From positions 185,566-249,565 of the forward strand of contig CAYLPP010000001.1 of the NCBI GenBank assembly GCA_964385615.1: DNA of 64,000 nucleotides. The letters are read 5' to 3'. The notes beneath the pieces are model-generated. The model ran no database searches. It was not told the origin of the DNA and saw nothing but the letters and a program-made list of their open reading frames with translations. This document shows positions 1 through 15,601 of this stretch, piece after piece. The translations under genes were made by a program, and so were the position numbers. This DNA comes from an uncultured bacterium. Lineage in GTDB: Bacteria; Omnitrophota; Omnitrophia; Omnitrophales; Aquincolibacteriaceae. Positions within the stretch are counted from its first letter, which is position 1; each line of letters starts with the position of its first letter.

Positions 1-1001
1 TGGCTCACGAGAGGCGTAATATCATTAAGGACTTTGTTTAAATTAACTCTATCTGTTTGCGGGTTTTCAGTAACGGTTTGCTTCGCGAAACGCGCAAAAC
101 CTTTCATAATCTCCATGGCGCGCGTAGCGTGGTCACCAACTTTAACTAAAATCTCTTCAGCTTTCTCAACAACCTGGTCTTTACTCGTGTAAATTCCTTC
201 CTGCCGATTGGCAATAAAAGACCCAGCCAACCCTTGAATCACATAGAGAGGATTGCGAATTTCGTGGTTGATGCTTGTAGCAAGAGTGCCGATCGCGGCT
301 AATTTCCCCCGGTGCGCGGCTTGAGCGAGCTTTTCAATATTAAAAAGATTTTCGCGCATAATAAAGTAGGCCATAACAAACGGGTATAAAGGCATAATAA
401 AAAGACCGTACTGCGGAACATCCAAACCATATAAAGGCAAAAAAGTCATCCCGCCACCTAAGAAACCGAATGCGGGGGCCATAATTAACCCTTGAAGCTG
501 TGTTTTTGCATTACCACTTGTCTCTCGAAGCTTTTTAAAAAGCTCGACAAACCCCATTCCAACAACAGTAAAAAACATCACCGAAAAAAAATGATACAAC
601 GGCCCAATCCCACCATAATATCGGAAATTAACCGTCTGAATTAATCGCGGAATAAAAAGCGGATGAAAACTCACGCTGGCTAACAACAAAGAATACATTA
701 ATAAAAACCTTAACACTCGCTTATGTTTTTGCGTCTTACCGACAAAAATAGATACAAAATACAACCAAGAAATCGGAATAAATATCGCCGCCAAGTCAGC
801 CATACGCACAGACCATAACGCTGTGTCATAAGAAACATTTTCACTTATAGTTATTGCCCAGAAACATCCCCAAGCTCCTGCCATTGACGAAAAAATAAAA
901 TAAGCTTTCCCCACTGCATCATTCCGCTTCAGCCAAACTAATAGGCTAATTAAAAAAGAACAGAAAGAAAAAAATAAAACCGAAAAATTATAAGGCGTCA
1001 T
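1..1001 (-). CDS. Sensor histidine kinase, partial (C-terminus lies beyond the window start). It has an N-terminal polytopic 7TM-type membrane domain followed by an HisKA H-box.
   Basis: Reverse-complement translation from ATG at 999..1001 (MTPYNFSVLFFSF...) is open to position 1. About 230 aa of hydrophobic helices are followed by ...RGKLAAIGTLATSINHEIRNPLYVIQG..., a typical H-box. This ORF is absent from the ORF track because it is truncated at the window edge. Confidence 0.7.
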   Translation of the reverse strand, partial: MTPYNFSVLFFSFCSFLISLLVWLKRNDAVGKAYFIFSSMAGAWGCFWAITISENVSYDTALWSVRMADLAAIFIPISWLYFVSIFVGKTQKHKRVLRFLLMYSLLLASVSFHPLFIPRLIQTVNFRYYGGIGPLYHFFSVMFFTVVGMGFVELFKKLRETSGNAKTQLQGLIMAPAFGFLGGGMTFLPLYGLDVPQYGLFIMPLYPFVMAYFIMRENLFNIEKLAQAAHRGKLAAIGTLATSINHEIRNPLYVIQGLAGSFIANRQEGIYTSKDQVVEKAEEILVKVGDHATRAMEIMKGFARFAKQTVTENPQTDRVNLNKVLNDITPLVS

Positions 1002-1059
1002 ATTTTCGAGAACTCTATTTTGAAAACTTCATCCGAAACCGCGTAAAAGTTTGTGGAGT

Positions 1060-1392
1060 TCATGCGCGCGCCTCGGAAGGAACAGATTCGGCAGGATCAA
1101 CTTCAGGCGCTGAAGCGGGCTCAGGGGCCGGACCAGCCAGGGTGGTAAATTCCGCGCGAAGAAAGGTAACAACGTCAGAAGCTGCAATACGCCAGCGGGT
1201 ACCGCCGATCTTGTAGGCTCGAAGCTTGCCGGCGGTAATATAGCGGAGAATGGTCTTCCGTGATTTGATCCCCAAAAAAGACTGTACTTCGGGGATACTC
1301 AAAAACTGCTGCACCGGTAATTCCGGTGCTGTGTTTTCAACATTGGCTCGCATAAGATGACAGAGGTCAACTTCTGAAACAGAGTAAAACAA
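1060..1392 (-). CDS. Small helix-turn-helix DNA-binding protein of the excisionase/MerR-like family, with an Ala/Pro/Glu-rich C-terminal tail
   Basis: 110 aa. ...LSIPEVQSFLGIKSRKTILRYITAGKLRAYKIGGTRWRIAASDVVTFL... matches the excisionase-type HTH_17 pattern. The gene sits 58 bp upstream of the HK gene on the same strand. Confidence 0.55.
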   Translation of the reverse strand: MFYSVSEVDLCHLMRANVENTAPELPVQQFLSIPEVQSFLGIKSRKTILRYITAGKLRAYKIGGTRWRIAASDVVTFLRAEFTTLAGPAPEPASAPEVDPAESVPSEARA

Positions 1393-1985
1393 CGAGCAAA
1401 AAACTAAGAATAAAGCTGAAAACTGCTAACTTCGGAATGATTTAAAAAATAGATAAAACTAGGTAATAGTGTGCTTCAGGTGGGGCGTATTCTACGCTTG
1501 TGGTTCGAGGTTGCAACTGTTTTCTAATGAAATTCGCAGATTTTTTCTAAAAAATCTCCAGACTTTTACGCAAAAAATAATAAAAGTTTTTAGAGACCTT
1601 AAACCTTTGCAAACTCATCATGTTCGAGATTAACATTCCTATCTTCAGAACTTTTTAAAACTATTAAGCTGAGCAGATCAGACTCCATCCTGCTCGCGGT
1701 CACCTTCACAGATCCGGGATTCCTCCTCACCCCGCCTTAAAAATCCCAGGGCCAAAATCAGACTTGAGCAAAACATGGTTATCGAGAATAAGATGCACAT
1801 GAGTTTTATCTCGTACCTCCTTTTTTTAGATAACGCGGATCATAGACCTCCGCCGGTCTTCCCGCGAGAAAAATGACCGCAAAATAATAAAAATGTGCGG
1901 ACTCCGCACCTGATTAACTTGATTCAGTGCAAGATTTAGACTTTACCAAAGGAGGAAACCCGTGGCCACCGCCTCTAGGCGGTGT

Positions 1986-2594
1986 TTAGGAGGAAGATGA
2001 GCCTGTATTTGACTCAGTGTTTAACTCTTTAATGTCACGCAAAAGCTTGCGCAAAATATCATCGAGCGCATACCTCGTGGATTGATGAACCGCATTGCGG
2101 ACTGAAAAAGCTCCGCCCCAAAACATCTTACCGCCTTGAGAAAGCCCATCTGAGCTATAGAGCTTGTCGAGCAGAGTTTGGGAACCCTTCATCAGCTTAA
2201 CGTTTAAAGCCACATGAGCGGTAAACTCGCTGAATTCATAACTTTTCAAATCAAAGATCAAGAGATTGCCCTGCGCGCTGTCCGCGGTTGCCTGTTTAGT
2301 CAGCTTGCCGAAAGCGGCTTGCACACTCGGAGATTCAAGTGCCGTATCCAGCATTGAACCGAACTCAACGATCCATTTATTTGCAATTCCCGAAGTAAAA
2401 GCCCGGAAGCTGTAGGAATGACTGGACGTTTCCGGCGTGAGGTAGTAAGCGGTTTGAAAATCGGCTTTAGTAGCCATGGGCAGGAGCGGATCATTGGCCA
2501 GGTAGCTTCCAAAGTCATTTGCCAAATGATGACAGCCCGCCGACATCATTGAAAGAAAACCCACAAGACCCAAGATAAGAACTTTACGGTTCAT
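1986..2594 (-). CDS. Lipoprotein of unknown function
   Basis: Lipobox-type N-terminus MNRKVLILGLVGFLSMMSAGC. No recognisable catalytic motifs. Confidence 0.6.
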   Translation of the reverse strand: MNRKVLILGLVGFLSMMSAGCHHLANDFGSYLANDPLLPMATKADFQTAYYLTPETSSHSYSFRAFTSGIANKWIVEFGSMLDTALESPSVQAAFGKLTKQATADSAQGNLLIFDLKSYEFSEFTAHVALNVKLMKGSQTLLDKLYSSDGLSQGGKMFWGGAFSVRNAVHQSTRYALDDILRKLLRDIKELNTESNTGSSSS

Positions 2595-2612
2595 ATTACG
2601 CTCCTGATTATT

Positions 2613-3062
2613 TTAAACAGCGCCTTTTGGCACAGGATTTACCGGCTGAAGCTCAATGTAAACTTCATCAACTTTTAAGTTTCTCATGGCACCAGTCGGC
2701 AAGTCAACAAGCCAGCCGATCCCCACGCCAATCCCCAACGTCCACCAACCCCAGGCAGCCGCATTTGTCAGAGTGGAGTGGCCAAAACCCTTCCACGACA
2801 ATCCTGACTTGACTTTAACAATCTGGGTTTCATAACCCTCTTTACGCGCTGTGCAGGTATGGTTGCGGCTCTGACGCAATCCAAGACCACCGGGCGTTTT
2901 TGTCGTTTTCCCGCCGCACATAACTTCAACGTCTTCCACGTTAGACTTAAAAACAACTTCCTGCTCGTGCCGCTGGCGCCCCACGATCGTCGAGCACCCC
3001 GATGCCAGGGTCCCCAGAAGAAACAAAGAAACAATTTTAGATCCCCATCTTTTGATTAACAT
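2613..3062 (-). CDS. Lipoprotein of unknown function, with a Gly/Trp-rich hydrophobic C-terminus
   Basis: N-terminus MLIKRWGSKIVSLFLLGTLASGC is a lipobox. The C-terminal segment WGWWTLGIGVGIGWLVDLPTG is hydrophobic. Confidence 0.55.
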   Translation of the reverse strand: MLIKRWGSKIVSLFLLGTLASGCSTIVGRQRHEQEVVFKSNVEDVEVMCGGKTTKTPGGLGLRQSRNHTCTARKEGYETQIVKVKSGLSWKGFGHSTLTNAAAWGWWTLGIGVGIGWLVDLPTGAMRNLKVDEVYIELQPVNPVPKGAV

Positions 3063-3312
3063 GGTTTACCGCTCCTTTTCGAACCGATTAAGACTGGTCA
3101 TTTGATCGGCAAAATCATACGGGCAGAAGCAGAGCAAACCGAGTTGAATCTCAGAAATTTATCTTAAATGTGCTCGTCATGCACACCTTGAGCGCACTTT
3201 TAGCACTTTTATGAGCGGTGAGGTACTTTAATAGCAGGCCGTAGGGTAACTCGAGGATGAAAAATGGATCAGCAACTAATAATGTCCGAATAGCGCTTGA
3301 TCATACCTTTTC

Positions 3313-3852
3313 TTATCCATTGTCCCGTTGCGAAACAGCTGCATTTTGAGCAGCAAGCAGACGAGTGCGAATTTCCTGCGCTTTTTTCATCCCGTACTCA
3401 CTCTTGTAATATTTTACCTCAAGCTCATCAAGAAGCGCCAAAGCTTCGTCGTATCTGTTTAATTTTTCATAAGCTTTGAGAAGCTCCTTTCCAAAGAAGC
3501 TTTCGTCACCCCGCCCTATTTCATATGCTTTTTTGTACGCATTTAGAGCTTCCTCGTAGCGTCCCATTTTAAAGTAATTATCCCCTTGCCTGGAAATTTC
3601 CCAGGATTCATGGATGATTTTGATGTCACGTTCATGAGACTCAACACTTTCCCTCATTTCCGGTGACCATTTGCTTGGATCGCTCTCTTTATACTCGGGC
3701 CTTCTCTCGCCAATGAATATTCCTTTCCCATCTTCCATGTGTTCAACAGTCAATCGGCTCGCTTTAGACCTCTGCGCTAGGTTGAAAATAGCCAAAGCGA
3801 TGACTATTACGCTCACGACTAGTAAAATCATCACTACCTTTTTTTTATTCAT
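3313..3852 (-). CDS. TPR-repeat protein with an N-terminal transmembrane anchor
   Basis: MNKKKVVMILLVVSVIVIALAIF forms a TM helix. Repeated A/Y/L-rich 34-mer-like helices (EALNAYKKAYEIGRG..., ELLKAYEKLNRYDEALALLDELE) indicate TPR repeats. The start lies 8 nt downstream of the giant gene's stop, with a GGTGA Shine-Dalgarno, so the two are translationally coupled. Confidence 0.65.
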   Translation of the reverse strand: MNKKKVVMILLVVSVIVIALAIFNLAQRSKASRLTVEHMEDGKGIFIGERRPEYKESDPSKWSPEMRESVESHERDIKIIHESWEISRQGDNYFKMGRYEEALNAYKKAYEIGRGDESFFGKELLKAYEKLNRYDEALALLDELEVKYYKSEYGMKKAQEIRTRLLAAQNAAVSQRDNG

Positions 3853-3859
3853 CTTTCAC

Positions 3860-6800
3860 CTAATAAGGAAGCTCGTCCGTATCAATTTCCCAGATTCCAT
3901 TTTCATAAACAGCGGCCCCTTCGTCTCTCAAATTTTCTAGAAACGAGTTCAATGCTCCAGATTGCGTTTGATCTTTTAAAGTAGCTTCGTAAAGCCTTCT
4001 CACAAATAAGTTAGTCTTTCGGTTAATTTCTTGGGCGATTCTCTCCGGCTCAAATTGGTTGCCGGGATCATTCCACGCTGTTGCATCATAGCTGAAATCA
4101 TTGTGCCGGGCATTGAGAATTTTAATATTAATGTTCTCAATCCCGTCCGGGGCAGATCCGGTAAAATTGGCCTTTGACCATTCTGAAAGAAGGTCTGTCG
4201 GATTAGACGGTGGGCCAAAATCACTTATGACCACAGGTTTTTTACTTGGATCAATGCAAGACACGGAACCATTGGTATTGCAGCCTGGAATCTGATCGGC
4301 TCTTCTCTCTATGATTTCGTTAGGCGCTGTTCCCCACACATTGATGATGCGTTTAAGGTTGGGGTTGTCAATATGATCACTCCAATTAACGTTAGGACCT
4401 TCATAATTGATTACCGTTTGCACATCAAAATAACTGCCGTCATCTCGTGTTTTTTCCAAAGCACCCAAGAGCGGGGCAAAAAATCCAGAATGCGCAAAAG
4501 CAATCGCTTTGTCTAAAATACCCCGTTTTGGATCGGCTTCAAATGCCAGCAATTTCCGTCTGACTTCTTCTATAAGATCATTACCGCCGAATGCATTTGC
4601 TAATATTGGCAATACCGATGGTGTAATGCCCAAGGCTACGGTCTTTAAGAGATCACTTGCACTGGTTAATTTGAAAATAAAATCCTGCGCCCAGTCAAGA
4701 ATATTTCCCACAAGACCGGTTGTTTCATACATAGGAACCATCAAGGTTTTCGCAAGGTTTATGATCAGGTCTTTATTCGCAAGATCATTTATAAATGACG
4801 GCATCAACTTGTCCGGCGTATTCTCGGGAACGATTTCATTGTTAAACCCATTACCGAAAATATATTTGGAGGTATCACCCGGGGCCGCTGTGGCAGAGCT
4901 TGTTCCCGGACGCATCTCAACACTGGCCTCGGCAACTTTGCCGTCAAGAATATTGAATTTTAAGAAGAGGTTGTCAAAAAGCGTGGGCCGTTGCGGGTCT
5001 AAATCATCGGGGATTTTGATGACAACCGCCGACGGATTGATTTCTACATCTCCCCGGAGGATACGCCCATCTTCGCCCATCCAAGGCGTTTGATCACCGG
5101 GACCTTTTACAGTTATTATTGGCGTGCTCTCAATGCCATAGCTCCAACCAGAAAGTTTTCCATCGCTATAGGTTTGCTTTAAAGTCATTCCATTACTAAG
5201 GAACGTTTCAGAAGTTAACTCTTGATAGTAAGACACACCTGCCTCATCTATCCCCACACCTGTGATGTTCGCTTCACCGCCAACGCCGAAAGAATCTCTA
5301 ATATTTTGGGTTTCGGTATCATAAACAATTCGGCTATCCCCGCTTTGCCAAACCCAAGTATCACCATTATCAACCACAGTCGCATTTTTAAGCCCAGTTT
5401 CATCCGCATAGATAGCTTCCTGAGTTTCCCGGCTAAATAAAGATGAAACAGCACTGATAGCTTTCTTAAAACCTTGCGCGGTAAAATGACCAACTCCTTC
5501 AATTACTTTGGCGCCAAAGGAAATAACATTGCCGACGGCATTGACCACGTCGCGGCCAAATTTCTTAATCCCATCGCCGATCCTTGAAAGAAGCCCCAAC
5601 CCCGCATTTTCAGAACTTCCCGGCCCACCGCCCCCCGCAGCGCCTCCCGCTAATCCGGCAGCGAAGGCCCCCAGAAAATTGCTCACCAGCCCCGTCGCAA
5701 ACGAAGGTGCTCCAATAGCGTCGAGCCCAATGCTGGCACCTACGGAAACCAAACCTCCGGCTGTATCGTGAATAATATTTGAAAGAGTGTTGCCGTAACC
5801 TTCAAGGCCCAGAGAATTGCCTGTAACATTTCCGGCAACCGCGCTGATTGGAATCGAGATAAGTTGTGAGATTCTCGGATCAAGACCAATTGCGTCGCCA
5901 ATCGCCATAACCCCCACTGAGGCGAATGACGCCGCAAGCGTGGGAAGCGAATCTTTTAAACTGTCAAAACCGCCGCCGCCGAAAACTGTCGCAATAATCG
6001 CGACCCCTATGCCGATTACCGCGGAAACCGTTGGAGAGAGATGCGTGTACTGATTAAAAATTTCAGATACTCCGCTAATAATAAGCCCAATTCCTGAACC
6101 GCCGTAAATCGTGAGCACGATACCCACAATAATCTTGACGCCGGCGACAATCGTCCGGGTAATTTTTTCAGGAATCCCGATTTTGCCAAGCGCAATAACG
6201 GTTGCTTGTATCGGCGCGTTAACAGACTCTGTGCCCAGGCGGATGCCAGTGCGGATAAGCTTCCAAATATCTTTCTGAAAAATATCTTTGAAATTAAACG
6301 TGAAGAGATCTTCGAATAAATCCGCCCATTGATCTACGTGCGCGAGGACGGCGATTCGTAAACTTTCGACAACCTTAACCAGAAGGGCGTTGATGGGGTT
6401 TAAGGCTACAAAATAGGCCCCGACCAGATATCTAAAAACTTTCTTGAGGAACCCGAAGAAGGCGCCGCGGACTTGCATCTGCTCAACCGTGGTCAAAGGC
6501 TGAACGGATAAATTGGAAATTGATGCGGGTGGAGCGCGGGAGCTTAAAACGACTCCGTAACCGCTCTGGGCGATTCCTGAATTAATCCACGTCTGAGTAA
6601 ATTCCCCTTTAGAAAGCGTCTGTACCTCCGGACTGCTTTCCGGCCCCAAGCCTGGATCAATGTAAGTCACTTCGTCATTCGTAACTTTGGTGATAATCAC
6701 GAAGTGTTTATTATTAATGTGAGCCGCCATCCGGAAATCGCAAGTCTGCTCAGGATCGGGGCAAGCGTCGTCATACATAGCCTTCAAAGCAGTGTAATCC

Positions 6801-9800
6801 AGTTTAAGCGCGTAAGTTTCAAGCCCGTAATGTCTGGCCGTCTGCTTAAGCGCGTAGACTGAAAGCACCAAATCTCCGGTTTCAAGCGGGGTTAGGGTGC
6901 CGGTCAGGATATCAATCAAAATTAAACGGCTGGCGAGATCCACGCGGTCAAAATGAAGACCAGCACCTGTTAAAAGAGATTCCAAAGCCAAGTAGGCCGA
7001 CTGGCCGAAATGTAATGACTGATTCTGCAGCCACTGGAGAATGGCATCAGCTTCTGAAGAAGAAATGGAGATAGTATCTTCTGTGTCGATGCCAAGACCC
7101 TGGGCGAAAATAAGTTTTTCAGCATCGGGAAGGTCAAGATAACTCAAAAGCTCAGAAGTTACCCGCGCTTTAATCTCGTTCACCTGAGCCGTACGGCCAG
7201 ACTTTTCCTGAGAGTTTTCAAGCTGTGACTTTAAAAATTGCAGATTGAAGCCCGCTTCAAAGTCTGTAGCATTAATGACAGCATCGTATTCCGACTGTGA
7301 AGGGTCCCGGCCCAGAATTTTCCGGTACCAGTGATAAATCACAGGGGAAATCTCTTGCTTTAAAATCGAGCGGTGAGCTTTTCCGGTTTCCTCACTGATT
7401 TGGGTATAGGAATCCTGAGTTTGAGTTTCAATCTGAATTGAAAGATCATGAACTTGCGCGCTCAATTGCGTAAGAGCATCCGCTCTCTGCTGGGCAAGAC
7501 TTTCCAGCGCGCCATTAACCTGATTCATAGCACTGGCAAGTTGGTCCATAACCGATCCAACCGCGCTTTTCGCGTCTTTTCCCTTGGAAAGAAAAGCTGA
7601 AACCACCTCTACCTGCGATTGAATCTGCGCCCGAATAGCAAGCAGGCGGTCACGGGCTGTCACATACTGCCCCTCAATGGTCTGGTTAATAACCTGATCG
7701 CGATCTGCCAGGCGGGCGAGAGCTTTTTCGTGCTCTACCGCTACATCAGAACGCAGCTGTTGAACTGACATTTCAAGATGCCGGCGCATCGCTCCGTAAT
7801 GTATGTTGATTGGATCGCCTTCACTGTTATACTCATAATCAACCAGATCTTCGCCGTCTTCAGAGAAGATATTCTTAATCTTTCCGTTTTCATAAAGCTC
7901 GATCGAACCTTCTGAAAACTGGCGCGTTAACAGAACCCCCTGAGTATCGTATTCATAACGTACAGCCACAGTGTCAGGAACCTGATAAGCCTGCCAGTCC
8001 GGCATTAAAATTTCATTCCAGACCTTAAATGCCTGAGCTTGATGAAAAACCGCGGATTCGTTCGGGTTGATTAATTCCCCTCCGTCCTCAGCCAACAAAA
8101 TTTCACGGCCTGTCGCTGAAATTACAGACCAGGGTCTGCCATCCTTAAATTTTGTAATCGTGCCATCCGCGTGATAAACCGATGCGTCCATCACCCTTAT
8201 CTGCTCTTCGGTCGCGGCATCTTCATTTTCCACCGTCTGGGTCTCCAGCCGGTCAAAAGTAATACGGGTACCCTCCGCGCGTTCGACCGATTTTAATACT
8301 CCGTTTTCATAAAATGCCTGGGTACCGTCAGCTGAAGTATAGGAATCGAGATCGACCCGGTGAATCATGTCACCATCCGGATTTTCAACTAACTCAATTG
8401 TCGGAATAGTAAAAGAAAGCACTGTGCCGTCTGAAAGCGTAAAGGTTTCTTCACGTGAACCTGTCACGATTTGCGGAGCATGTTCAAACGTGTGACTGTA
8501 GTGATAGCCGTCCGGCGTGGTATGGGCCACAATCTGGCTTTGAGGGTTATATTCTTCCACAGTGCCATCTTCGGCTGTTACCAACCGGTTTCCAGAAACG
8601 GTATCCTGATATTGAAATGCATGGTAAACGCGGCCTTTATAAGAAATCTCCGTGGAGACAAGCTCTCCCCTCAAGTTGTAGGAGAAAGTATTGAGGACGC
8701 CATTACTTAACTGCCGGCTAATCAGAACCTGATCACGGTATCTTTCTGTAATTTGTGTTTCAGGGTCATAAACCGCGGTAATTTCGTTACCCTGCGGATC
8801 AAACTCATACGAATAGGAAAGCTGGGATTGGTTCGGCCGTTCCACGGAACGCACACGGCCATAGCTAAGCTGGAAGGTATTCACACCTCCATCAGCGTTA
8901 GTCACAGTTTCTGTCATGCTTTGAGGGTGATCTATGTCGGCCTCACTAAATTCAATTCTGCTGCCATCCGGCATCGTGGTTTCCACCACTCGTCCGTTTT
9001 CAATTTTTGAAACCGAGCCGTAAAATGTTTCAAATCCCGTCGCGATACCTTCAGAATCAAAATCAATTTTCGTTTCAGCTTGAAGAATCGCGTTCCAGTC
9101 AAAAATACTTTCTTCAGAAGCCTGGCTCAGCCCAAGATACTGAGCCAATGTTTGCGTACGGTCAGAATGGACTTCTTTCAGGACATTTTCCTCAGTGAGC
9201 ATACGGTCGAGCCAATCTTTGGAAGCGTCTGGCCGAAGGATTAAAAATGTCAGATTATCCACAAAAAGAGTCGGAGTGTTTTGAGAAGCCGTCGGCGAAG
9301 GAATAAATTTAATCTGAACTTGGCCCGCATTAGATTTTTCCGTATCGAGGGGAAGGTAAAAATCTTGCCATGAGGCCGTAAGATTTGAAACCGTCCATTC
9401 CTGATAATTTGCCAAGTCTTCCGGGTCTCCGAGCATAACCGTAACTGCACCTTCAGATTCTGGAAGATTCCCCTCTGCTTTTAAACTGATATGCAGGTAA
9501 TCATAGCGGGACGTCGGTACAGGTACAGAAGGCGCGGACAATGCTTCAATTTGAGTCACTTGCGCCAGAAGGAACCCGTTCCCGGTACCATATTGGATGT
9601 ACCACTTCCCATCACTTTCCTTAAAAAAAACATGATCGGGAATATGGTCACCGTTCAGGTCGGAAAGCTGACTGACTTTGCGTACAGAATCAGGTTCACG
9701 GCTATAGGAAGGTGCTCCAAAAGAGCGATAATGAGTATCATCCTGGCCTAAAGCAGTCTCCGAAGAGTTTGATCCCTCAATCCCCGTCCAGGCCTGAGCT

Positions 9801-12800
9801 TCAGCAAACCCGTTTCCGGTATTCAACTCTACCCACCAGGTATTATTAACCCCGGAAGCGGAATAATTGTCGAGCGTTACACGATCGACTCTTCCGTCAC
9901 CATTCATATCAATCAAGTCTGAAGCAATATTTCTTTTTCCTGATGCCGAGTAATCAAAAGTCCTTAAGGCCGTTCCGGTTTTTCCATCCGGAACTGTGAC
10001 ATTGCGGACTTCAGAATCCCAAAGCACAGCTCCATCAAATCCATCTCCATTGTTGTACTGAACATACCAGTCGTAGCCGGAAGCATCATCCGCGGGATTT
10101 TTAAGTTTCAGCAAGATACGGTCAGGCCGGTTATCTCCGTTGAGGTCAACCAGATCAGAAATATCACCTATCATCCCGTTATTATCGCGATACCAAGATA
10201 AGGCCCCAGCGATTTTAACGTTAGAATCAAAACTTAAATCAAGACCCGTCCAAAGCGCTGCGTCATCAAACCCGTTGCCATTATTGTGCTGGAAAAACCA
10301 ATGATCAAAAGGCGCAACATACGGGCGAATGACCCTGTCGGCACGCCCGTCACCATCCATATCAATCAAGTCAGAAACAATAGGCTGAACCGCCGGGTAC
10401 CCTTCATCATCCCTGACTTCGGAGGCATAGCTGGTATCTGCCTGCCAGTTACTCAACGGATGCACGTTGCCCCAAACCTGAGGGGCGTCAAATCCATGCC
10501 CATTATTTATTTGTACATACCAATCAGAAGATCCGCCTGATTTTTGTAATACACGATCTGGAAGACCATCACCGTTCATATCCGCAAGATCTCCTAAGAC
10601 AACGGGCCGGCGGCCGGTAAAAAAACGGAGCGCTCCCTGAGATTCTCCCGCGATCGTCAATGCGGGGTTAGGATCATAATGCCTTTCAACACCAGTCCAT
10701 TGCACTGGACTTTCAAAACCAATTCCGTTCCCAAGCTGAACCCACCAGTAGTTTTCATTTTGGCTCGAAGGCATCCAGACGCGGTCCGCAATATTGTCGC
10801 CATTAATATCAAAAAGATCGCTCGTAAGCGCCGGCTGATTGTCCCATAAATCCAAAACCGAACTTCGCGAAAGATATCCCTGATTGTAAAAACTTTGACC
10901 GGTATAAAGATTGTTCCAGACCGGGGTGTAATCTCCTGAGAATTTGTAAACACGCCCCCGCTCAGAATCTTCCACAAACTGGGCGAGAAAAATCGACCCG
11001 TCCTGGCCGTCAACCGATACTTCTGATTCAAGCTGGAGATCCGCTAATACATCAAAAGCATTTCGCCCCAAAAGAGCAGACCGTAAGGACGGGTCAGCCG
11101 GTGCATGATCTCTGTCTGTCAGGAAATGGTATAGCCGGGTTGTCCCTGCATCTCGTTTGTATTCCTGGACGGACGGTGTAAAGTTAGAAGTCCAGCGCGC
11201 GGTTCCTTTGGAAATCCGGATTTCATCAAGAGCTCCCTTAAAAAAAGAAACCATACCGTTATAGGCTGCGCCCACGCTAATACTGAAATTTCCAGAGGGC
11301 ATCTCCCCCGAAACTGTTTTTTGACTCTGAGACTGCCCATTCAAGTAAAGCGTCATAATGTCTCCATTGCGCACCAGCGCGGCATGATACCAAAGCCCGG
11401 CTTCCAGCTCCGCTCCGGTTGAGAAAAGGCCTCCTCCAAAGGGCTGCCCCCCCTTCTCAATGTAGGCATTAAGCTTGTGATCAGCTGAAATATAAAAGGA
11501 AATATTATTATTGAGACTTCCACCGGTATATTGAGACCAAAGCATCTGTATTTCAGAACCAAGCGATTCCGCCTCAAACCAAAACTCAATCGTAAAATTC
11601 TCACTCCCATACTGAAAATCCGGACTGGAGCCGTCAGGAATCCTCAAGTAATCTTGACTGCCATCCAGATTTAACGCGCCTTCTCCAAACCTTGAACGGC
11701 CTGTTTCCAAATTCGCGTCTCCAGCTAAAGCAAAGGAATCATCCTTATAAAAAGGGGCCATCAAAAGACCTTTAGGATCCAGCAAGTAAGGGATAAGGGG
11801 GTATTCGGGGGCTCCGGCTTCAGAAGCCAAACGTATCCGGGCGGATTGAAGATCTCCGGCTGCATTTTCGCCGTAGATAAACTCATAATGGCCGTTTTGA
11901 GTTTCAATAGCGCTGATAATGCCGTTTTCATAATAAATTTTCGTGCCGTCAGAACGAATGCTCCGCACTAATTTTCCATTTTCTATAATCTGACGGGTTC
12001 CATCAGCAAAAACTGTTTCTCCAGACATAATGCCCTGGGCATCAAAATCCGGCGTCTCGATTTCTCCAAAACGCGTAAAAATTCGGCTAATCTCTCCATT
12101 CTCGATTTCAGCATTCACGCCATCCATAAGCAAACTCCGCAAATCGCCATCTGGAGTAAAAGTGTGCTGAGTATGCTCCCCTGAGAAATGAATATCGGTG
12201 ATCAGGCCTTCCACGTCACGGCTGTACGAAACCGTTTCCTGACTCTGATCCGGCAAAATAATCCGAAAGGCCAACCCCTCAAAGTCATAATCAATCTCTG
12301 CCCCGGCAGGTGTAATCAATTTTACAAGTCTGCCTTTCTGAAAATATTTCCGAGTACCATCCGGCAGTTCTTCCAAAACCGTCTCAACTTCCTTTTGAGC
12401 ATTGAATCCAATCTGATTCAGTTTCCGGCCGTCAGGAAAAACAATCCCCGAAACTGTCTGCCCGCCGTAAAGCACTCGGGTTCCATCCCGAAGTTTCCAT
12501 TCCGTAAGCACCGCCTGTCTGCCGAGAGCGGTGTTCTGCATTTCATAAAGCTTCCCATCCAGAGTTTCAAAACCAGTAAGGATGCCGTTCTCGATTCTCT
12601 GCTTAATCCCATTACGAGTCTCGATAATGCCGCGCAGAATGTTCCCCTGGCTGTCCAGTTCAAAATCGCTCAACTTGTCTCCGCCATTAGTTTCAAGCAG
12701 CAGTTGGATTTCGTCTTCGTCCGTAACCTCCCCATCGCCATTCGTATCAATACGGCTCCGGCGAATCGTTCCGGCTGAAGTCTGAATTTCAGAAAGAAAT

Positions 12801-15601
12801 CCCTTCGCGTCGTAATTAAATACAGCGCCATTGCGGCTGACCTGTAAAGCATTTAAAAGTTCCTGGTTTTCCACATAAGAAAAATCCATCTGCTCGTTAT
12901 TCTCATTGACGACACTTGTAATTTTCCCGTTCTGTATAAAAATCCGAGTCCCGTTTTTGAGAACCATCTTCGTCAGACTTCCCTGCTGGGTATATTCAGC
13001 CTCAACAAGGCCTTTTTCAGGAACCGCTGTCGAGGACGCCTGATTTAAAACCAATAAATAAGAGTCTCCGCTTTGAGTTCGTTCATAAAGAAAATGGGCT
13101 CCATTTTCGTCACGAACCTCCCGGAGAATGCCATGCTCGTCGTAACGAACCAACATCCCGCCTGCGGTAAATAAGCGAGTTTCCGAGACCTGGATCTGCG
13201 AAACTTTGACAAATGAAGCATACTGAACTTTGCTGGCGAAAATCTCCCGAACCAAAAATGAGGCTGGCGTAAAATCTTCAACCGTTCCATCCGGACCAAC
13301 TCTTCTGAGAAGCGCGCCTTTCCGGATAATTTCCAGTTTCCCATCTGGATAAACAATGAGGGCATTTTGGATTTCTGAATTTTCATTCATGCTAAAATTA
13401 GTGATTCGAATATCTGAAGCGGTACGGAACTCCGCAAGATGCCCATTAACATAAAAAGCATCCACCCCTCCATCGAAAGTCATTTTAAGGGAAACTGCCT
13501 CATCAAGCGGTGCAGGCACAGGCTGATTAATCGTTTCAATCACAGTACCGTCAGCATCAGTAACTTCGATTGTATTTGAAGTATTCCGCAGATAACGAAC
13601 CTCTTCACCGCTAACATATTTATATTTTTGCACGCTGCCGTCCGGACCGTAAAAAACCTGATCTCCGGCAGGCGTGACTTCTCGAGTTAAAACCCCAGAT
13701 TCATAAAAAAGATGGGTGCCATCCTGGAGAGTTACATCACTGTTCGAAGAATGCGACTGATCGTTAATGGTATCGCTAAATAAAGCGATATTCCCGGCGT
13801 TATCTCGAAGCTGATAAAGCACTTCCTTCTGCCCATTCCCTCCGGTCAAACTCAAAGATTTCACAGAGGCGGCAGCTTCCCAAACCGTCCAAGTTTGTCC
13901 CGCATCCATCGAGAAGCGCATTTGATCAAGCCCTGAAGAGTCTGAACCGGTTAAAGTTAAAGTAACTACAGAACTTACTGTGGATTCAGCCCCTCCATTG
14001 ATCAAAATAGACCCTAGTGGAGAAGTCGTGTCCCTTTTAACCGTAAAGGAATTAGATGAGCCGGTTTTGCCGATAGTATTTTTGGCTTTGACACTGACGC
14101 TGTTATTACTCTCTTTGGTTAAATTAATTATCGCAGCCCAGGTTGTCGAATTGTTAAGAGCAACCACTTCCACATTGTTAATTAAAATAGCCGTGTTGGC
14201 TTCTTTAGTTCCGCTAAGCGTTAAAGTGGTCAGATTCGTTAAAGCGGGAATATTTGAGGTCACGCCAGGTTCTGCGGGAGAATCTACATTAATTCCTTTA
14301 ACTCGAACCCCGACCGAACCTGTCTGAGTAGACGTGTTAGACTGGGTCACGATAAAATTTAGTTGTTTTATTTTCGTTTTATCCAACGCATTCGAAATCG
14401 ACGCGACCGGAACCTGCCAATATCTTTCTGTTGAACTTGAAATATCCGTAAGCGTCCAGATATCCTTGATCCCATTAATATCTACAACCTCAAGCTTAAT
14501 CGAAGTGTTTGAACCCTTAAGACCGAAAGTCAGATTTGTTAGGGCGCTTAAATTTTGAGTCTCTACAGTACTCGTGCTGGCGTCATCAAAAGAGAGAGTA
14601 AAACCTGCGAGATCCCCCGCGTTCAAAACACTATAATCCAACGTGATTTTGTCAGAAGCCCCTGAAATGGAAGTTCCGGCTGATGTTCCTGTAACATAAT
14701 ATGGATGAGGATTTCCAGGTAAGGTAACCACACTTGAAGAGCCAAGCCCCGCGGTGTAAGAAAGGGTCCCGCCCCGCCTTAAAGTGACCTTCTCCTGCTC
14801 TTGCGCTCGATTATAAAGATCTTGCTCTGAAATAAATTGATTCAGTTCTTTCCGAGCTTCAACCTGATTCCGTTCTACCTCTGATTGCCTGACGGCTTCC
14901 GTCAGCTTCGCTAAATACTCTTCGAAAGAAAGCGGCTGCCCATGATTGAGTACCCCCTGATTGTTATAAGCGTACACCCCTTGACGAGTCATAACATATT
15001 CAGCATTTTCCACCGCATCATTAATATCCTGTCCACTCGGCCCCTCCGCAGAATATTCCCCGGGGTGAGTGTGAGATACGAACGAAGCTTTATCCGTGAG
15101 GGCTTTTACCGAAGAAAGCACGCCAATCTCATTTATATTACCGGAAGTAAAAATCACAACTTCGCCATCGAGGACAATGACACCTGTCTCAAAAGATAAA
15201 TTCATTAAGGCCTTCAAATCCTCCGATTGAATATCTTTCACAATGACGGCCGAAGCATACTCCGGGCGGAGCAAATCCAAAGCATCTTCAAATTCATAGC
15301 GTTCATATTCATAAGAAGAAGGTTCCGTAGAAACGGCCTCGGATTTAATCGAAGTGCCTTCGGGAGCATCGGTAGTCGTGAGCCTCAAGGTATCTTGAAG
15401 AAAATCCTGGGAAGTCTGTTGCGCGATAGCGGGGTCGACAACATTCTGTTTAATCTCGTTTGAATCAGCCGCACTTTTTTCAGCCTGCACTGGAACAGGC
15501 TGCGTTAGAAACTCCTGGCCGAACAGCAATTGCGTGGTCGAGAAAGTAATAATGACAGCGGAAGAAACAACTTTTTTAAATGGAAACTTTTTAAGGCGCA
15601 T
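3860..15601 (-). CDS. Giant secreted multidomain protein (3913 aa). Order: signal peptide; JAB/MPN-like motif; Ig-like beta-sandwich region; YD/RHS-repeat block 1; LamG (concanavalin-like) domain; six-blade FG-GAP/VCBS-like Ca-binding propeller; beta-sandwich; YD/RHS-repeat block 2; coiled coil; C39-like peptidase fold; Gly-rich hydrophobic region; unassigned C-terminal domain.
   Basis: The ORF is uninterrupted. The N-terminus MRLKKFPFKKVVSSAVIITFSTTQLLFGQE is a signal peptide, and the start carries an AGAGAGG Shine-Dalgarno 7 nt upstream. YD-repeat motifs include YDEHGILREV, FNYDAKGFLSEI, YSYEFDPQGNEI, YEYDTQGVLLTR and YEYNSEGDPINI. The LamG-like region is LNLDGSQDYLRIPDG...FTIEFWFE...LYLNGQ...GALDEIRISKGTARW. 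Six repeats follow of the form D[IML][ND]GD[GN]xxD[RH]V...W[YWF]VQxNNGxGF. Domain coordinates are given in the findings. Confidence 0.9.
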   Translation of the reverse strand: MRLKKFPFKKVVSSAVIITFSTTQLLFGQEFLTQPVPVQAEKSAADSNEIKQNVVDPAIAQQTSQDFLQDTLRLTTTDAPEGTSIKSEAVSTEPSSYEYERYEFEDALDLLRPEYASAVIVKDIQSEDLKALMNLSFETGVIVLDGEVVIFTSGNINEIGVLSSVKALTDKASFVSHTHPGEYSAEGPSGQDINDAVENAEYVMTRQGVYAYNNQGVLNHGQPLSFEEYLAKLTEAVRQSEVERNQVEARKELNQFISEQDLYNRAQEQEKVTLRRGGTLSYTAGLGSSSVVTLPGNPHPYYVTGTSAGTSISGASDKITLDYSVLNAGDLAGFTLSFDDASTSTVETQNLSALTNLTFGLKGSNTSIKLEVVDINGIKDIWTLTDISSSTERYWQVPVASISNALDKTKIKQLNFIVTQSNTSTQTGSVGVRVKGINVDSPAEPGVTSNIPALTNLTTLTLSGTKEANTAILINNVEVVALNNSTTWAAIINLTKESNNSVSVKAKNTIGKTGSSNSFTVKRDTTSPLGSILINGGAESTVSSVVTLTLTGSDSSGLDQMRFSMDAGQTWTVWEAAASVKSLSLTGGNGQKEVLYQLRDNAGNIALFSDTINDQSHSSNSDVTLQDGTHLFYESGVLTREVTPAGDQVFYGPDGSVQKYKYVSGEEVRYLRNTSNTIEVTDADGTVIETINQPVPAPLDEAVSLKMTFDGGVDAFYVNGHLAEFRTASDIRITNFSMNENSEIQNALIVYPDGKLEIIRKGALLRRVGPDGTVEDFTPASFLVREIFASKVQYASFVKVSQIQVSETRLFTAGGMLVRYDEHGILREVRDENGAHFLYERTQSGDSYLLVLNQASSTAVPEKGLVEAEYTQQGSLTKMVLKNGTRIFIQNGKITSVVNENNEQMDFSYVENQELLNALQVSRNGAVFNYDAKGFLSEIQTSAGTIRRSRIDTNGDGEVTDEDEIQLLLETNGGDKLSDFELDSQGNILRGIIETRNGIKQRIENGILTGFETLDGKLYEMQNTALGRQAVLTEWKLRDGTRVLYGGQTVSGIVFPDGRKLNQIGFNAQKEVETVLEELPDGTRKYFQKGRLVKLITPAGAEIDYDFEGLAFRIILPDQSQETVSYSRDVEGLITDIHFSGEHTQHTFTPDGDLRSLLMDGVNAEIENGEISRIFTRFGEIETPDFDAQGIMSGETVFADGTRQIIENGKLVRSIRSDGTKIYYENGIISAIETQNGHYEFIYGENAAGDLQSARIRLASEAGAPEYPLIPYLLDPKGLLMAPFYKDDSFALAGDANLETGRSRFGEGALNLDGSQDYLRIPDGSSPDFQYGSENFTIEFWFEAESLGSEIQMLWSQYTGGSLNNNISFYISADHKLNAYIEKGGQPFGGGLFSTGAELEAGLWYHAALVRNGDIMTLYLNGQSQSQKTVSGEMPSGNFSISVGAAYNGMVSFFKGALDEIRISKGTARWTSNFTPSVQEYKRDAGTTRLYHFLTDRDHAPADPSLRSALLGRNAFDVLADLQLESEVSVDGQDGSIFLAQFVEDSERGRVYKFSGDYTPVWNNLYTGQSFYNQGYLSRSSVLDLWDNQPALTSDLFDINGDNIADRVWMPSSQNENYWWVQLGNGIGFESPVQWTGVERHYDPNPALTIAGESQGALRFFTGRRPVVLGDLADMNGDGLPDRVLQKSGGSSDWYVQINNGHGFDAPQVWGNVHPLSNWQADTSYASEVRDDEGYPAVQPIVSDLIDMDGDGRADRVIRPYVAPFDHWFFQHNNGNGFDDAALWTGLDLSFDSNVKIAGALSWYRDNNGMIGDISDLVDLNGDNRPDRILLKLKNPADDASGYDWYVQYNNGDGFDGAVLWDSEVRNVTVPDGKTGTALRTFDYSASGKRNIASDLIDMNGDGRVDRVTLDNYSASGVNNTWWVELNTGNGFAEAQAWTGIEGSNSSETALGQDDTHYRSFGAPSYSREPDSVRKVSQLSDLNGDHIPDHVFFKESDGKWYIQYGTGNGFLLAQVTQIEALSAPSVPVPTSRYDYLHISLKAEGNLPESEGAVTVMLGDPEDLANYQEWTVSNLTASWQDFYLPLDTEKSNAGQVQIKFIPSPTASQNTPTLFVDNLTFLILRPDASKDWLDRMLTEENVLKEVHSDRTQTLAQYLGLSQASEESIFDWNAILQAETKIDFDSEGIATGFETFYGSVSKIENGRVVETTMPDGSRIEFSEADIDHPQSMTETVTNADGGVNTFQLSYGRVRSVERPNQSQLSYSYEFDPQGNEITAVYDPETQITERYRDQVLISRQLSNGVLNTFSYNLRGELVSTEISYKGRVYHAFQYQDTVSGNRLVTAEDGTVEEYNPQSQIVAHTTPDGYHYSHTFEHAPQIVTGSREETFTLSDGTVLSFTIPTIELVENPDGDMIHRVDLDSYTSADGTQAFYENGVLKSVERAEGTRITFDRLETQTVENEDAATEEQIRVMDASVYHADGTITKFKDGRPWSVISATGREILLAEDGGELINPNESAVFHQAQAFKVWNEILMPDWQAYQVPDTVAVRYEYDTQGVLLTRQFSEGSIELYENGKIKNIFSEDGEDLVDYEYNSEGDPINIHYGAMRRHLEMSVQQLRSDVAVEHEKALARLADRDQVINQTIEGQYVTARDRLLAIRAQIQSQVEVVSAFLSKGKDAKSAVGSVMDQLASAMNQVNGALESLAQQRADALTQLSAQVHDLSIQIETQTQDSYTQISEETGKAHRSILKQEISPVIYHWYRKILGRDPSQSEYDAVINATDFEAGFNLQFLKSQLENSQEKSGRTAQVNEIKARVTSELLSYLDLPDAEKLIFAQGLGIDTEDTISISSSEADAILQWLQNQSLHFGQSAYLALESLLTGAGLHFDRVDLASRLILIDILTGTLTPLETGDLVLSVYALKQTARHYGLETYALKLDYTALKAMYDDACPDPEQTCDFRMAAHINNKHFVIITKVTNDEVTYIDPGLGPESSPEVQTLSKGEFTQTWINSGIAQSGYGVVLSSRAPPASISNLSVQPLTTVEQMQVRGAFFGFLKKVFRYLVGAYFVALNPINALLVKVVESLRIAVLAHVDQWADLFEDLFTFNFKDIFQKDIWKLIRTGIRLGTESVNAPIQATVIALGKIGIPEKITRTIVAGVKIIVGIVLTIYGGSGIGLIISGVSEIFNQYTHLSPTVSAVIGIGVAIIATVFGGGGFDSLKDSLPTLAASFASVGVMAIGDAIGLDPRISQLISIPISAVAGNVTGNSLGLEGYGNTLSNIIHDTAGGLVSVGASIGLDAIGAPSFATGLVSNFLGAFAAGLAGGAAGGGGPGSSENAGLGLLSRIGDGIKKFGRDVVNAVGNVISFGAKVIEGVGHFTAQGFKKAISAVSSLFSRETQEAIYADETGLKNATVVDNGDTWVWQSGDSRIVYDTETQNIRDSFGVGGEANITGVGIDEAGVSYYQELTSETFLSNGMTLKQTYSDGKLSGWSYGIESTPIITVKGPGDQTPWMGEDGRILRGDVEINPSAVVIKIPDDLDPQRPTLFDNLFLKFNILDGKVAEASVEMRPGTSSATAAPGDTSKYIFGNGFNNEIVPENTPDKLMPSFINDLANKDLIINLAKTLMVPMYETTGLVGNILDWAQDFIFKLTSASDLLKTVALGITPSVLPILANAFGGNDLIEEVRRKLLAFEADPKRGILDKAIAFAHSGFFAPLLGALEKTRDDGSYFDVQTVINYEGPNVNWSDHIDNPNLKRIINVWGTAPNEIIERRADQIPGCNTNGSVSCIDPSKKPVVISDFGPPSNPTDLLSEWSKANFTGSAPDGIENINIKILNARHNDFSYDATAWNDPGNQFEPERIAQEINRKTNLFVRRLYEATLKDQTQSGALNSFLENLRDEGAAVYENGIWEIDTDELPY
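9542..10819 (-). repeat. Six tandem FG-GAP/VCBS-like calcium-binding propeller blades inside giant gene 1
   Basis: The blades are DINGDNIADRVWM...WWVQLGNGIGF; DMNGDGLPDRVLQ...WYVQINNGHGF; DMDGDGRADRVIR...WFFQHNNGNGF; DLNGDNRPDRILL...WYVQYNNGDGF; DMNGDGRVDRVTL...WWVELNTGNGF; DLNGDHIPDHVFF...WYIQYGTGNGF. Confidence 0.7.

Follow-up and report, generated by a model that had tools for sequence, protein, structure and literature searches.

Proteins built on RHS/YD repeats include metazoan teneurins, whose C-terminal domains lie outside the shell, the TcB/TcC components of Tc toxins, the Rhs effectors of type VI secretion systems (T6SS) and bacterial teneurin-like proteins (TLPs). In TcB/TcC (TcdB2-TccC3, 4o9x; YenB/YenC2, 4igl), the RHS sheet is combined with an FG-GAP-like propeller, SpvB and TcdB_toxin_midC domains, an Rhs-core aspartyl autoprotease and a TcA partner, and a hypervariable cargo of ~30 kDa follows directly on the shell; Tc cocoons hold about 30 kDa and are gated by their six-bladed propeller (PMC11435725). 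TLPs and metazoan teneurins (9ifo, 6fay) are Sec-targeted and join variable adhesion modules to a YD shell, with an NHL propeller placed ahead of a single YD block; in TLPs, an FN-plug ahead of the propeller, a C-terminal cargo of about 15 kDa and a variable C-terminal effector with a linked protective gene complete this organization, which has been reported from six phyla, Omnitrophota not being among them (PMC13018210). The T6SS Rhs effectors (RhsA 7q97, Tre23 7pq5, Tse5 8cp6, RhsP 8h8a) have an unsplit YD region and carry PAAR, VgrG, DUF6531, the Rhs core and the motif PxxxxDPxGL, and one of them, Tse5, is described as an Rhs shell bearing a C-terminal pore-forming toxin (PMC10684867).

Giant proteins are already associated with the phylum considered here, since Omnitrophota have been proposed to be predators or parasites using giant surface proteins (PMC10066038; bioRxiv 10.1101/2023.11.21.568195). 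The Archaeovorin/Dockerin giants of the latter account reach 30-85 kaa; they are equipped at the N-terminus with a signal and close to the C-terminus with membrane helices, contain C39-like domains as well as antiparallel beta structures of RHS-like type, and would, as proposed there, work on the surface of foreign cells (bioRxiv 10.1101/2023.11.21.568195). The C39 fold signature is also found in the HlyB-type CLDs of type 1 secretion ABC transporters and in Tox-PL-C39 (PMC3482391); the CLD of HlyB is devoid of the catalytic Cys and binds its substrate without cleaving it (bioRxiv 10.1101/2023.11.21.568195).

The stretch of DNA analysed here, hereafter the window, is 64,000 nucleotides long and contains, at 3860..15601 on the minus strand, one unbroken ORF of 3,913 aa, as the original prediction had stated; the segments then proposed correspond to aa 800-1260, 2190-2600, 1290-1480 and 1595-2020 and match the boundaries obtained computationally (Table 1). 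An identical protein (P0034, 100% over 3,913 aa) is present in a public collection. The best reading of the sequence is that of a modular giant protein of Omnitrophota, exported by Sec and located in the envelope or at the surface, belonging to a so far undescribed family of this phylum. This family is rare and patchy in its distribution, with 20 metagenome loci and 67 cluster representatives, in which the tail is always C-terminal, within proteins of 3-5 kaa or fragments. The core order is conserved as YD1, optional LamG, propeller, sandwich, YD2, coiled coil, C39-like domain and Gly-rich hydrophobic region, the succession of YD1, insert and YD2 being kept in most relatives, some of which also contain CBM60, glycoamylase and ILEI modules. 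The protein of locus L001 is colinear with that of the window, with 49.6% identity across aa 603-3913. Among the neighbouring ORFs, scanned up to about 52.6 kb, regulators and housekeeping genes surround the giant ORF, and the flanking genes are conserved in L011; the sole other giant ORF of the window encodes an AAA/LRR protein. The giant ORF and these scanned neighbours show no T6SS, PAAR, VgrG or comparable dedicated context for export; the neighbours encode no secretion system able to display a 3,900-aa protein at the surface, and no TcA-like gene occurs among the window ORFs scanned.

Table 1. Features of the giant ORF and of its downstream partner gene, in order from the N-terminus (coordinates are positions in the window).
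Feature	Residues (aa)	Position	Strand	Basis or remark
Whole ORF	1-3913	3860..15601	-	3,913 aa; P0034 identical in public collection
Signal-like segment	1-29	15515..15601	-	basic n-region + hydrophobic stretch
Conserved N-terminal domain	about 95-235	14897..15319	-	JAB/JAMM-like motif E...HTHPx9 (ending in GP)-S-x2-D
Beta-rich modules without family assignment	about 290-620	13742..14734	-	variable between homologues
RHS/YD block 1	620-1295	11717..13744	-	confident modelled hairpin sheet at aa 811-1259
Laminin_G_3 / concanavalin-like lectin domain	1313-1465	11207..11665	-	E 2.9e-24 (Pfam)
Six-bladed FG-GAP / TcdB_toxin_midN-type beta-propeller	about 1583-2012	9566..10855	-	Pfam + blade motifs
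Conserved module, propeller to YD2	about 2020-2140	9182..9544	-	29-53% identity across family
RHS/YD block 2	2150-2625	7727..9154	-	confident modelled hairpin sheet at aa 2178-2602
Helical coiled-coil-like segment	about 2625-2760	7322..7729	-	conserved at 40-61%
DUF4214-like motif YHWYRKILGRDPSxxEY	about 2762-2800	7202..7318	-	conserved in family alignment
C39-like domain without catalytic Cys	about 2860-3040	6482..7024	-	Peptidase_C39 match + motifs
Gly-rich hydrophobic / glycine-zipper region	3040-3400	5402..6484	-	3-5 candidate membrane helices
Beta-rich N-subdomain of C-terminal region	3400-3565	4907..5404	-	AlphaFold2: strands at residues 9-165, pLDDT 46-79
Predicted alpha/beta-hydrolase domain	about 3580-3913	3863..4864	-	elbow AHS(3705)GF, His3833, Asp3835
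Downstream partner gene	179 aa	3313..3852	-	putative N-terminal membrane anchor + TPR (Pfam)

The two blocks that had been taken for YD/RHS repeats are genuine RHS/YD hairpin repeats, as judged from family profiles and from the predicted structure. Block 2 reaches 32 bits against RHS_repeat in Pfam (gathering threshold 22), while block 1 as a single sequence remains just under this threshold, at 19-20 bits; homologues score 35 and 23 bits. The profile built from a 10-member family of block 1 matches the Rhs protein 7q97 (E 1.5e-7) and Tre23 (4.9e-6), as well as Tse5 and the CPAP G-box, and that of block 2 matches seven Rhs chains. The combined YD family profile retrieves 30 RHS proteins with E down to 5e-17, all of them containing PF05593, most PF25023 and many PF20148 or PF03527. 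The AlphaFold2 model of YD1+YD2 (1,152 aa) is all beta-hairpin, with a pLDDT of 70-92 in block 2, and its top 38 Foldseek matches are all Rhs, teneurin, TLP or TcB-TcC structures (E of the order of 1e-22 at best, ranging from 4e-22 to 6e-9), including TLP 9ifo at E 6e-21 and TcB/TcC at E 4e-13 to 6e-9; the T6SS Rhs effectors provide the best profile and fold matches of both blocks. An assignment of the segments to unrelated repeats such as beta-helices is contradicted by both the profile searches and Foldseek. The single sequence of block 1 found no match among 8,000 candidates, and single-sequence searches against the PDB gave nothing significant for block 1, the propeller, the C39 region or the N-terminus. 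When the YD1 and YD2 profiles were mapped onto the 30 RHS proteins, in order to compare the blocks with the two halves (N and C) of a canonical shell, the matches slid along the repeats.

The insert of 850 aa that separates the blocks begins with the lectin-like LamG domain, recognized as had been expected and missing from many relatives, and continues with a propeller of TcB type, an assignment made from sequence. Each of its six blades carries the motif D[LIMV]xDxNGDxxxD (at aa 1595, 1671, 1744, 1816, 1895 and 1978), in agreement with the six blades originally counted; it exceeds the Pfam threshold for FG-GAP_3 (38.9 bits) and matches TcdB_toxin_midN over four stretches (36 bits, cut-off 24.8), whereas NHL has no Pfam match in the giant protein. 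The module that leads from the propeller to YD2 has no Pfam match and is probably a small beta-sandwich.

Upstream of the repeats, the presence of a Sec signal peptide, already proposed, is plausible from the sequence, the signal-like N-terminus being conserved in L001, L011, L012, L019 and L008. In the domain that follows, the HTHP of the JAB/JAMM-like motif begins at aa 182 and the motif is conserved in six family members; the Pfam matches of this domain, to DUF4329 (Tox-JAB-2) and Prok-JAB, are weak (E about 0.09).

Downstream of YD2, the predicted coiled coil corresponds to a helical segment, a helix beginning at the very end of the YD2 model, with weak Pfam matches of coiled-coil type, and DUF4214 has a weak match in the homologue P0002. 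The C39-like fold is confirmed by Peptidase_C39 at aa 2913-3005 (28.2 bits against a threshold of 22; 25-33 bits in homologues). The domain retains the His (HINxxH[FY]) and the Asp (YIDPG) and is newly found to be Cys-less, the family alignment having no Cys in its conserved N-terminal part and LHFG[QD]SAY in place of the Cys motif. It is therefore unlikely to be an active releasing peptidase, unless a conserved Ser substitutes for the Cys; it recalls the Cys-less CLD of HlyB, with the difference that CLDs sit in ABC transporters and this domain forms part of a secreted giant. The hydrophobic region beyond it bears out the proposed Gly-zipper, with 14.7% Gly over aa 3040-3400 and 22 small-xxx-small-xxx-small motifs, shuffled sequences giving 13.3 +/- 3.6. 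It is kept family-wide as a region with low identity, and is loosely comparable to the C-terminal part of Tse5 (PMC10684867).

The C-terminal domain of 500 aa that had been left without assignment is indeed present, and can now be newly read as an alpha/beta-hydrolase. Since Pfam and profile searches gave nothing significant, its fold was assigned by structure prediction: no Pfam family was found in this domain of the giant protein or of 21 relatives, and the best match of its family profile among PDB sequences was a non-significant lipase-esterase (E 0.36). A PDB match to 'TOD4/TOD6' (E 1e-4) was discarded as a spurious sum of weak TALE-repeat matches. Within the 56-kDa C-terminal region, the last ~330 residues are modelled by AlphaFold2 as a folded alpha/beta-hydrolase with a nucleophile elbow, the top structural neighbours of which include feruloyl esterases, cutinases, PETases and lipases. 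Ser-Gly never varies between tail types, and the His is likewise conserved. In types B and C, strand 7 is followed by an acid (GTxD); type A lacks it there, its candidates being Asp3835 or a Glu, and in this type the acid is not fixed. The model and this Ser/His active-site signature point to a predicted esterase/lipase-like alpha/beta-hydrolase.

As judged from the sequences, the tail type goes together with that of the tightly coupled gene downstream, which encodes a TPR protein with a membrane anchor, and not with the core phylogeny. The partner gene begins 8 bp past the stop codon of the giant ORF, its homologues lie directly downstream only where the hydrolase tail type matches, and tail types A-E cluster identically to their downstream ORFs, in line with the variable C-terminus that was to be sought among homologues, where several divergent types were found. 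On the core tree, which is star-like and without bootstrap, these types are scattered, the window (type A) being nearest to L005 (B) and L001 (A) nearest to L008 (C). In types A, B and C alike, the partner shows TPR signals and carries an anchor or signal peptide at its N-terminus. Polymorphic toxin systems, as Zhang et al. reportedly set out in 2012, combine a conserved body and a variable C-terminal toxin with a cognate immunity gene immediately downstream. The conserved body and the co-clustering of tails with downstream ORFs recall such systems, but here all tail types are distant homologues of a single fold and all partners are TPR-like and remote homologues of each other, so the pattern could reflect co-evolution of an enzyme with its foldase or anchor in place of a toxin-immunity relationship. 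The window and L001 share a tail that is 82% identical and partners that are only 39% identical, unlike what a recent co-transfer of a toxin-immunity cassette would predict.

TcB/TcC resemble the giant protein in their RHS sheet, in their FG-GAP-like propeller and in the occurrence of YD repeats before as well as after this propeller along the chain. The giant protein is devoid of SpvB, TcdB_toxin_midC, autoprotease, TcA partner and of the hypervariable cargo placed right after the shell, and adds lectin-like modules, a coiled-coil segment, the C39-like domain, the Gly-zipper and a predicted folded hydrolase. With TLPs and teneurins it shares Sec targeting, variable adhesion modules, the propeller and YD scaffold, and with TLPs a variable C-terminal part, here a putative effector, and a linked gene; it differs in its propeller, of FG-GAP/TcB type and set between two blocks, in its C-terminal part of about 1,300 aa, and in that no FN-plug was recognised. 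The hallmarks listed above for T6SS Rhs effectors are absent, and the YD region is split. With the Omnitrophota giants, ten times larger, it has in common the phylum, the N-terminal signal, the C39-like domain and candidate membrane helices towards the C-terminus; its repeats are detectably true RHS where theirs are RHS-like, no dockerin, TSP3 or SecA-like Pfam domain was found in it, and the accessible portion of the published account makes no mention of a Tc-type propeller or of a hydrolase tail with a TPR partner (bioRxiv 10.1101/2023.11.21.568195).

We tentatively favour, at somewhat less than an even chance, a teneurin- or TcB/TcC-like polymorphic effector-adhesin of a predatory or host-dependent nanobacterium, for which bacterial TLPs (PMC13018210) and the Rhs effector Tse5 (PMC10684867) offer precedents. 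The N-terminal lectin-like modules and the propeller would attach to the surface of a second cell, with the RHS sheet as rigid shell or stalk; the segment with the Gly-zipper would anchor in or insert into a membrane, and the esterase/lipase-type domain could attack envelope lipids or acylated polymers. In the producer, the periplasm-facing TPR partner might neutralise the hydrolase in the manner of an immunity protein or fold it like a Lif foldase, and the effector, unlike those of Tc and Rhs proteins, would not be carried within the RHS shell.

A less probable alternative, though one with a real chance, is an adhesin or feeding scaffold, in which the RHS blocks would be open sheet spacers holding lectin-like modules off the cell, the hydrolase an esterase active on carbohydrate or cell wall (of deacetylase or feruloyl-esterase type) and processing polymers of the prey or substrate surface, and the TPR protein a helper in folding or anchoring that confers no immunity. 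The feruloyl esterases, cutinases and PETases among the structural neighbours are consistent with it, as are the LamG, CBM60, glycoamylase and ILEI modules of relatives and the remote homology of all TPR partners, expected of a dedicated helper. Omnitrophota giants likewise associate hollow RHS-like tubules of antiparallel beta-helix, to which the open blocks would be comparable, with C39 domains and with membrane anchors close to the C-terminus, and are linked by West-Roberts et al. to the processing of cell-wall polymers (bioRxiv 10.1101/2023.11.21.568195). Conversely, the enzyme comes after a hydrophobic region of ~360 aa, with the lectin modules at the other extremity of the protein, an unusual location if it is to face a substrate; the propeller belongs specifically to the Tc-toxin type, and the tail types do not agree with the core tree, itself star-like and without bootstrap.

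A housekeeping envelope protein is improbable. It would be anchored by its C-terminal part in its own inner membrane, with the hydrolase acting on its own envelope, the TPR protein being a Lif-type steric foldase; RHS blocks, propeller and lectin domain would together form a structural element of the periplasm or surface, e.g. a cell coat. In LipA/Lif lipase-foldase operons, an alpha/beta-hydrolase gene is followed by one for an N-terminally anchored helical-repeat protein, and the order of hydrolase and anchored helical-repeat partner seen here resembles them by analogy. The housekeeping surroundings of the gene, with flanks conserved in L011, and the 82% identity of the tail between the window and L001 would also fit; however, variable tails on close cores and a make-up of RHS and Tc-type propeller are typical of conflict systems, and such a rare and patchy family is not expected for a housekeeping role.

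It is rather improbable too that a single polypeptide performs the whole task of an ABC toxin for an ultra-small predator, with a split YD cocoon gated by the Tc-type propeller and coupled in cis to a glycine-zipper that penetrates the membrane and to a lipase-type effector, delivered into prey on contact without T6SS, TcA or Rhs autoprotease, the TPR protein conferring immunity. Encapsulation in the Tc/Rhs style, as originally put forward, is unsupported. Pfam and motif searches of the giant protein gave no match to SpvB, TcdB_toxin_midC or the Rhs core PF03527, in accordance with the absence of SpvB and of a canonical Rhs-core protease noted from the outset, and PxxxxDPxG is absent from it and from 22 relatives (several of them fragments) whereas it is present in 21/30 bona fide RHS matches. 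The motif 'PLIPYLLDP(KGL)', conserved at the end of YD1, was rejected as a cryptic Rhs cleavage motif, its spacing being off by one and DPxG unconserved. Structure prediction returned an RHS-type hairpin sheet and, in a model with a pTM of only 0.39, no single closed shell (TM 0.08-0.15, about 0.13). A true Tc-like capsule, in which YD1 and YD2 would close as one cocoon with the propeller as plug and an unfolded C-terminal cargo leaving through this gate, is very unlikely. The C-terminal side comprises about 1,300 residues after YD2, including a 56-kDa region that ends in a modelled hydrolase fold, against the 15-30 kDa of known cocoons, even though YD1+YD2 can be aligned from end to end, over some 1,100 columns, with Rhs cocoons that are complete at 1,020-1,084 residues, and the propeller matches TcdB_toxin_midN, a six-bladed propeller being the gate of Tc cocoons.

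Omnitrophota are uncultured, mostly ultra-small and thought to be predators or parasites, with a route of attack or attachment that is largely unknown and giant proteins that are mostly unannotated. The present family provides a tractable (about 4 kaa) conserved architecture in which true RHS repeats and a Tc-type propeller are joined to a predicted membrane-inserting segment and to a predicted esterase/lipase with a matched partner, and its parts lend themselves to testing, with a single catalytic serine, a single partner and a single domain of C39 type. It widens the known designs of RHS/YD scaffolds, with repeats split by a propeller and without autoprotease, and brings new parts to RHS-containing proteins, namely an alpha/beta-hydrolase family invisible to Pfam and a C39-like domain devoid of Cys. 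Should the shell prove to close and to deliver cargo, the protein would amount to an ABC-toxin analogue complete in itself; as it stands, the giant protein looks like a putative contact weapon or adhesin.

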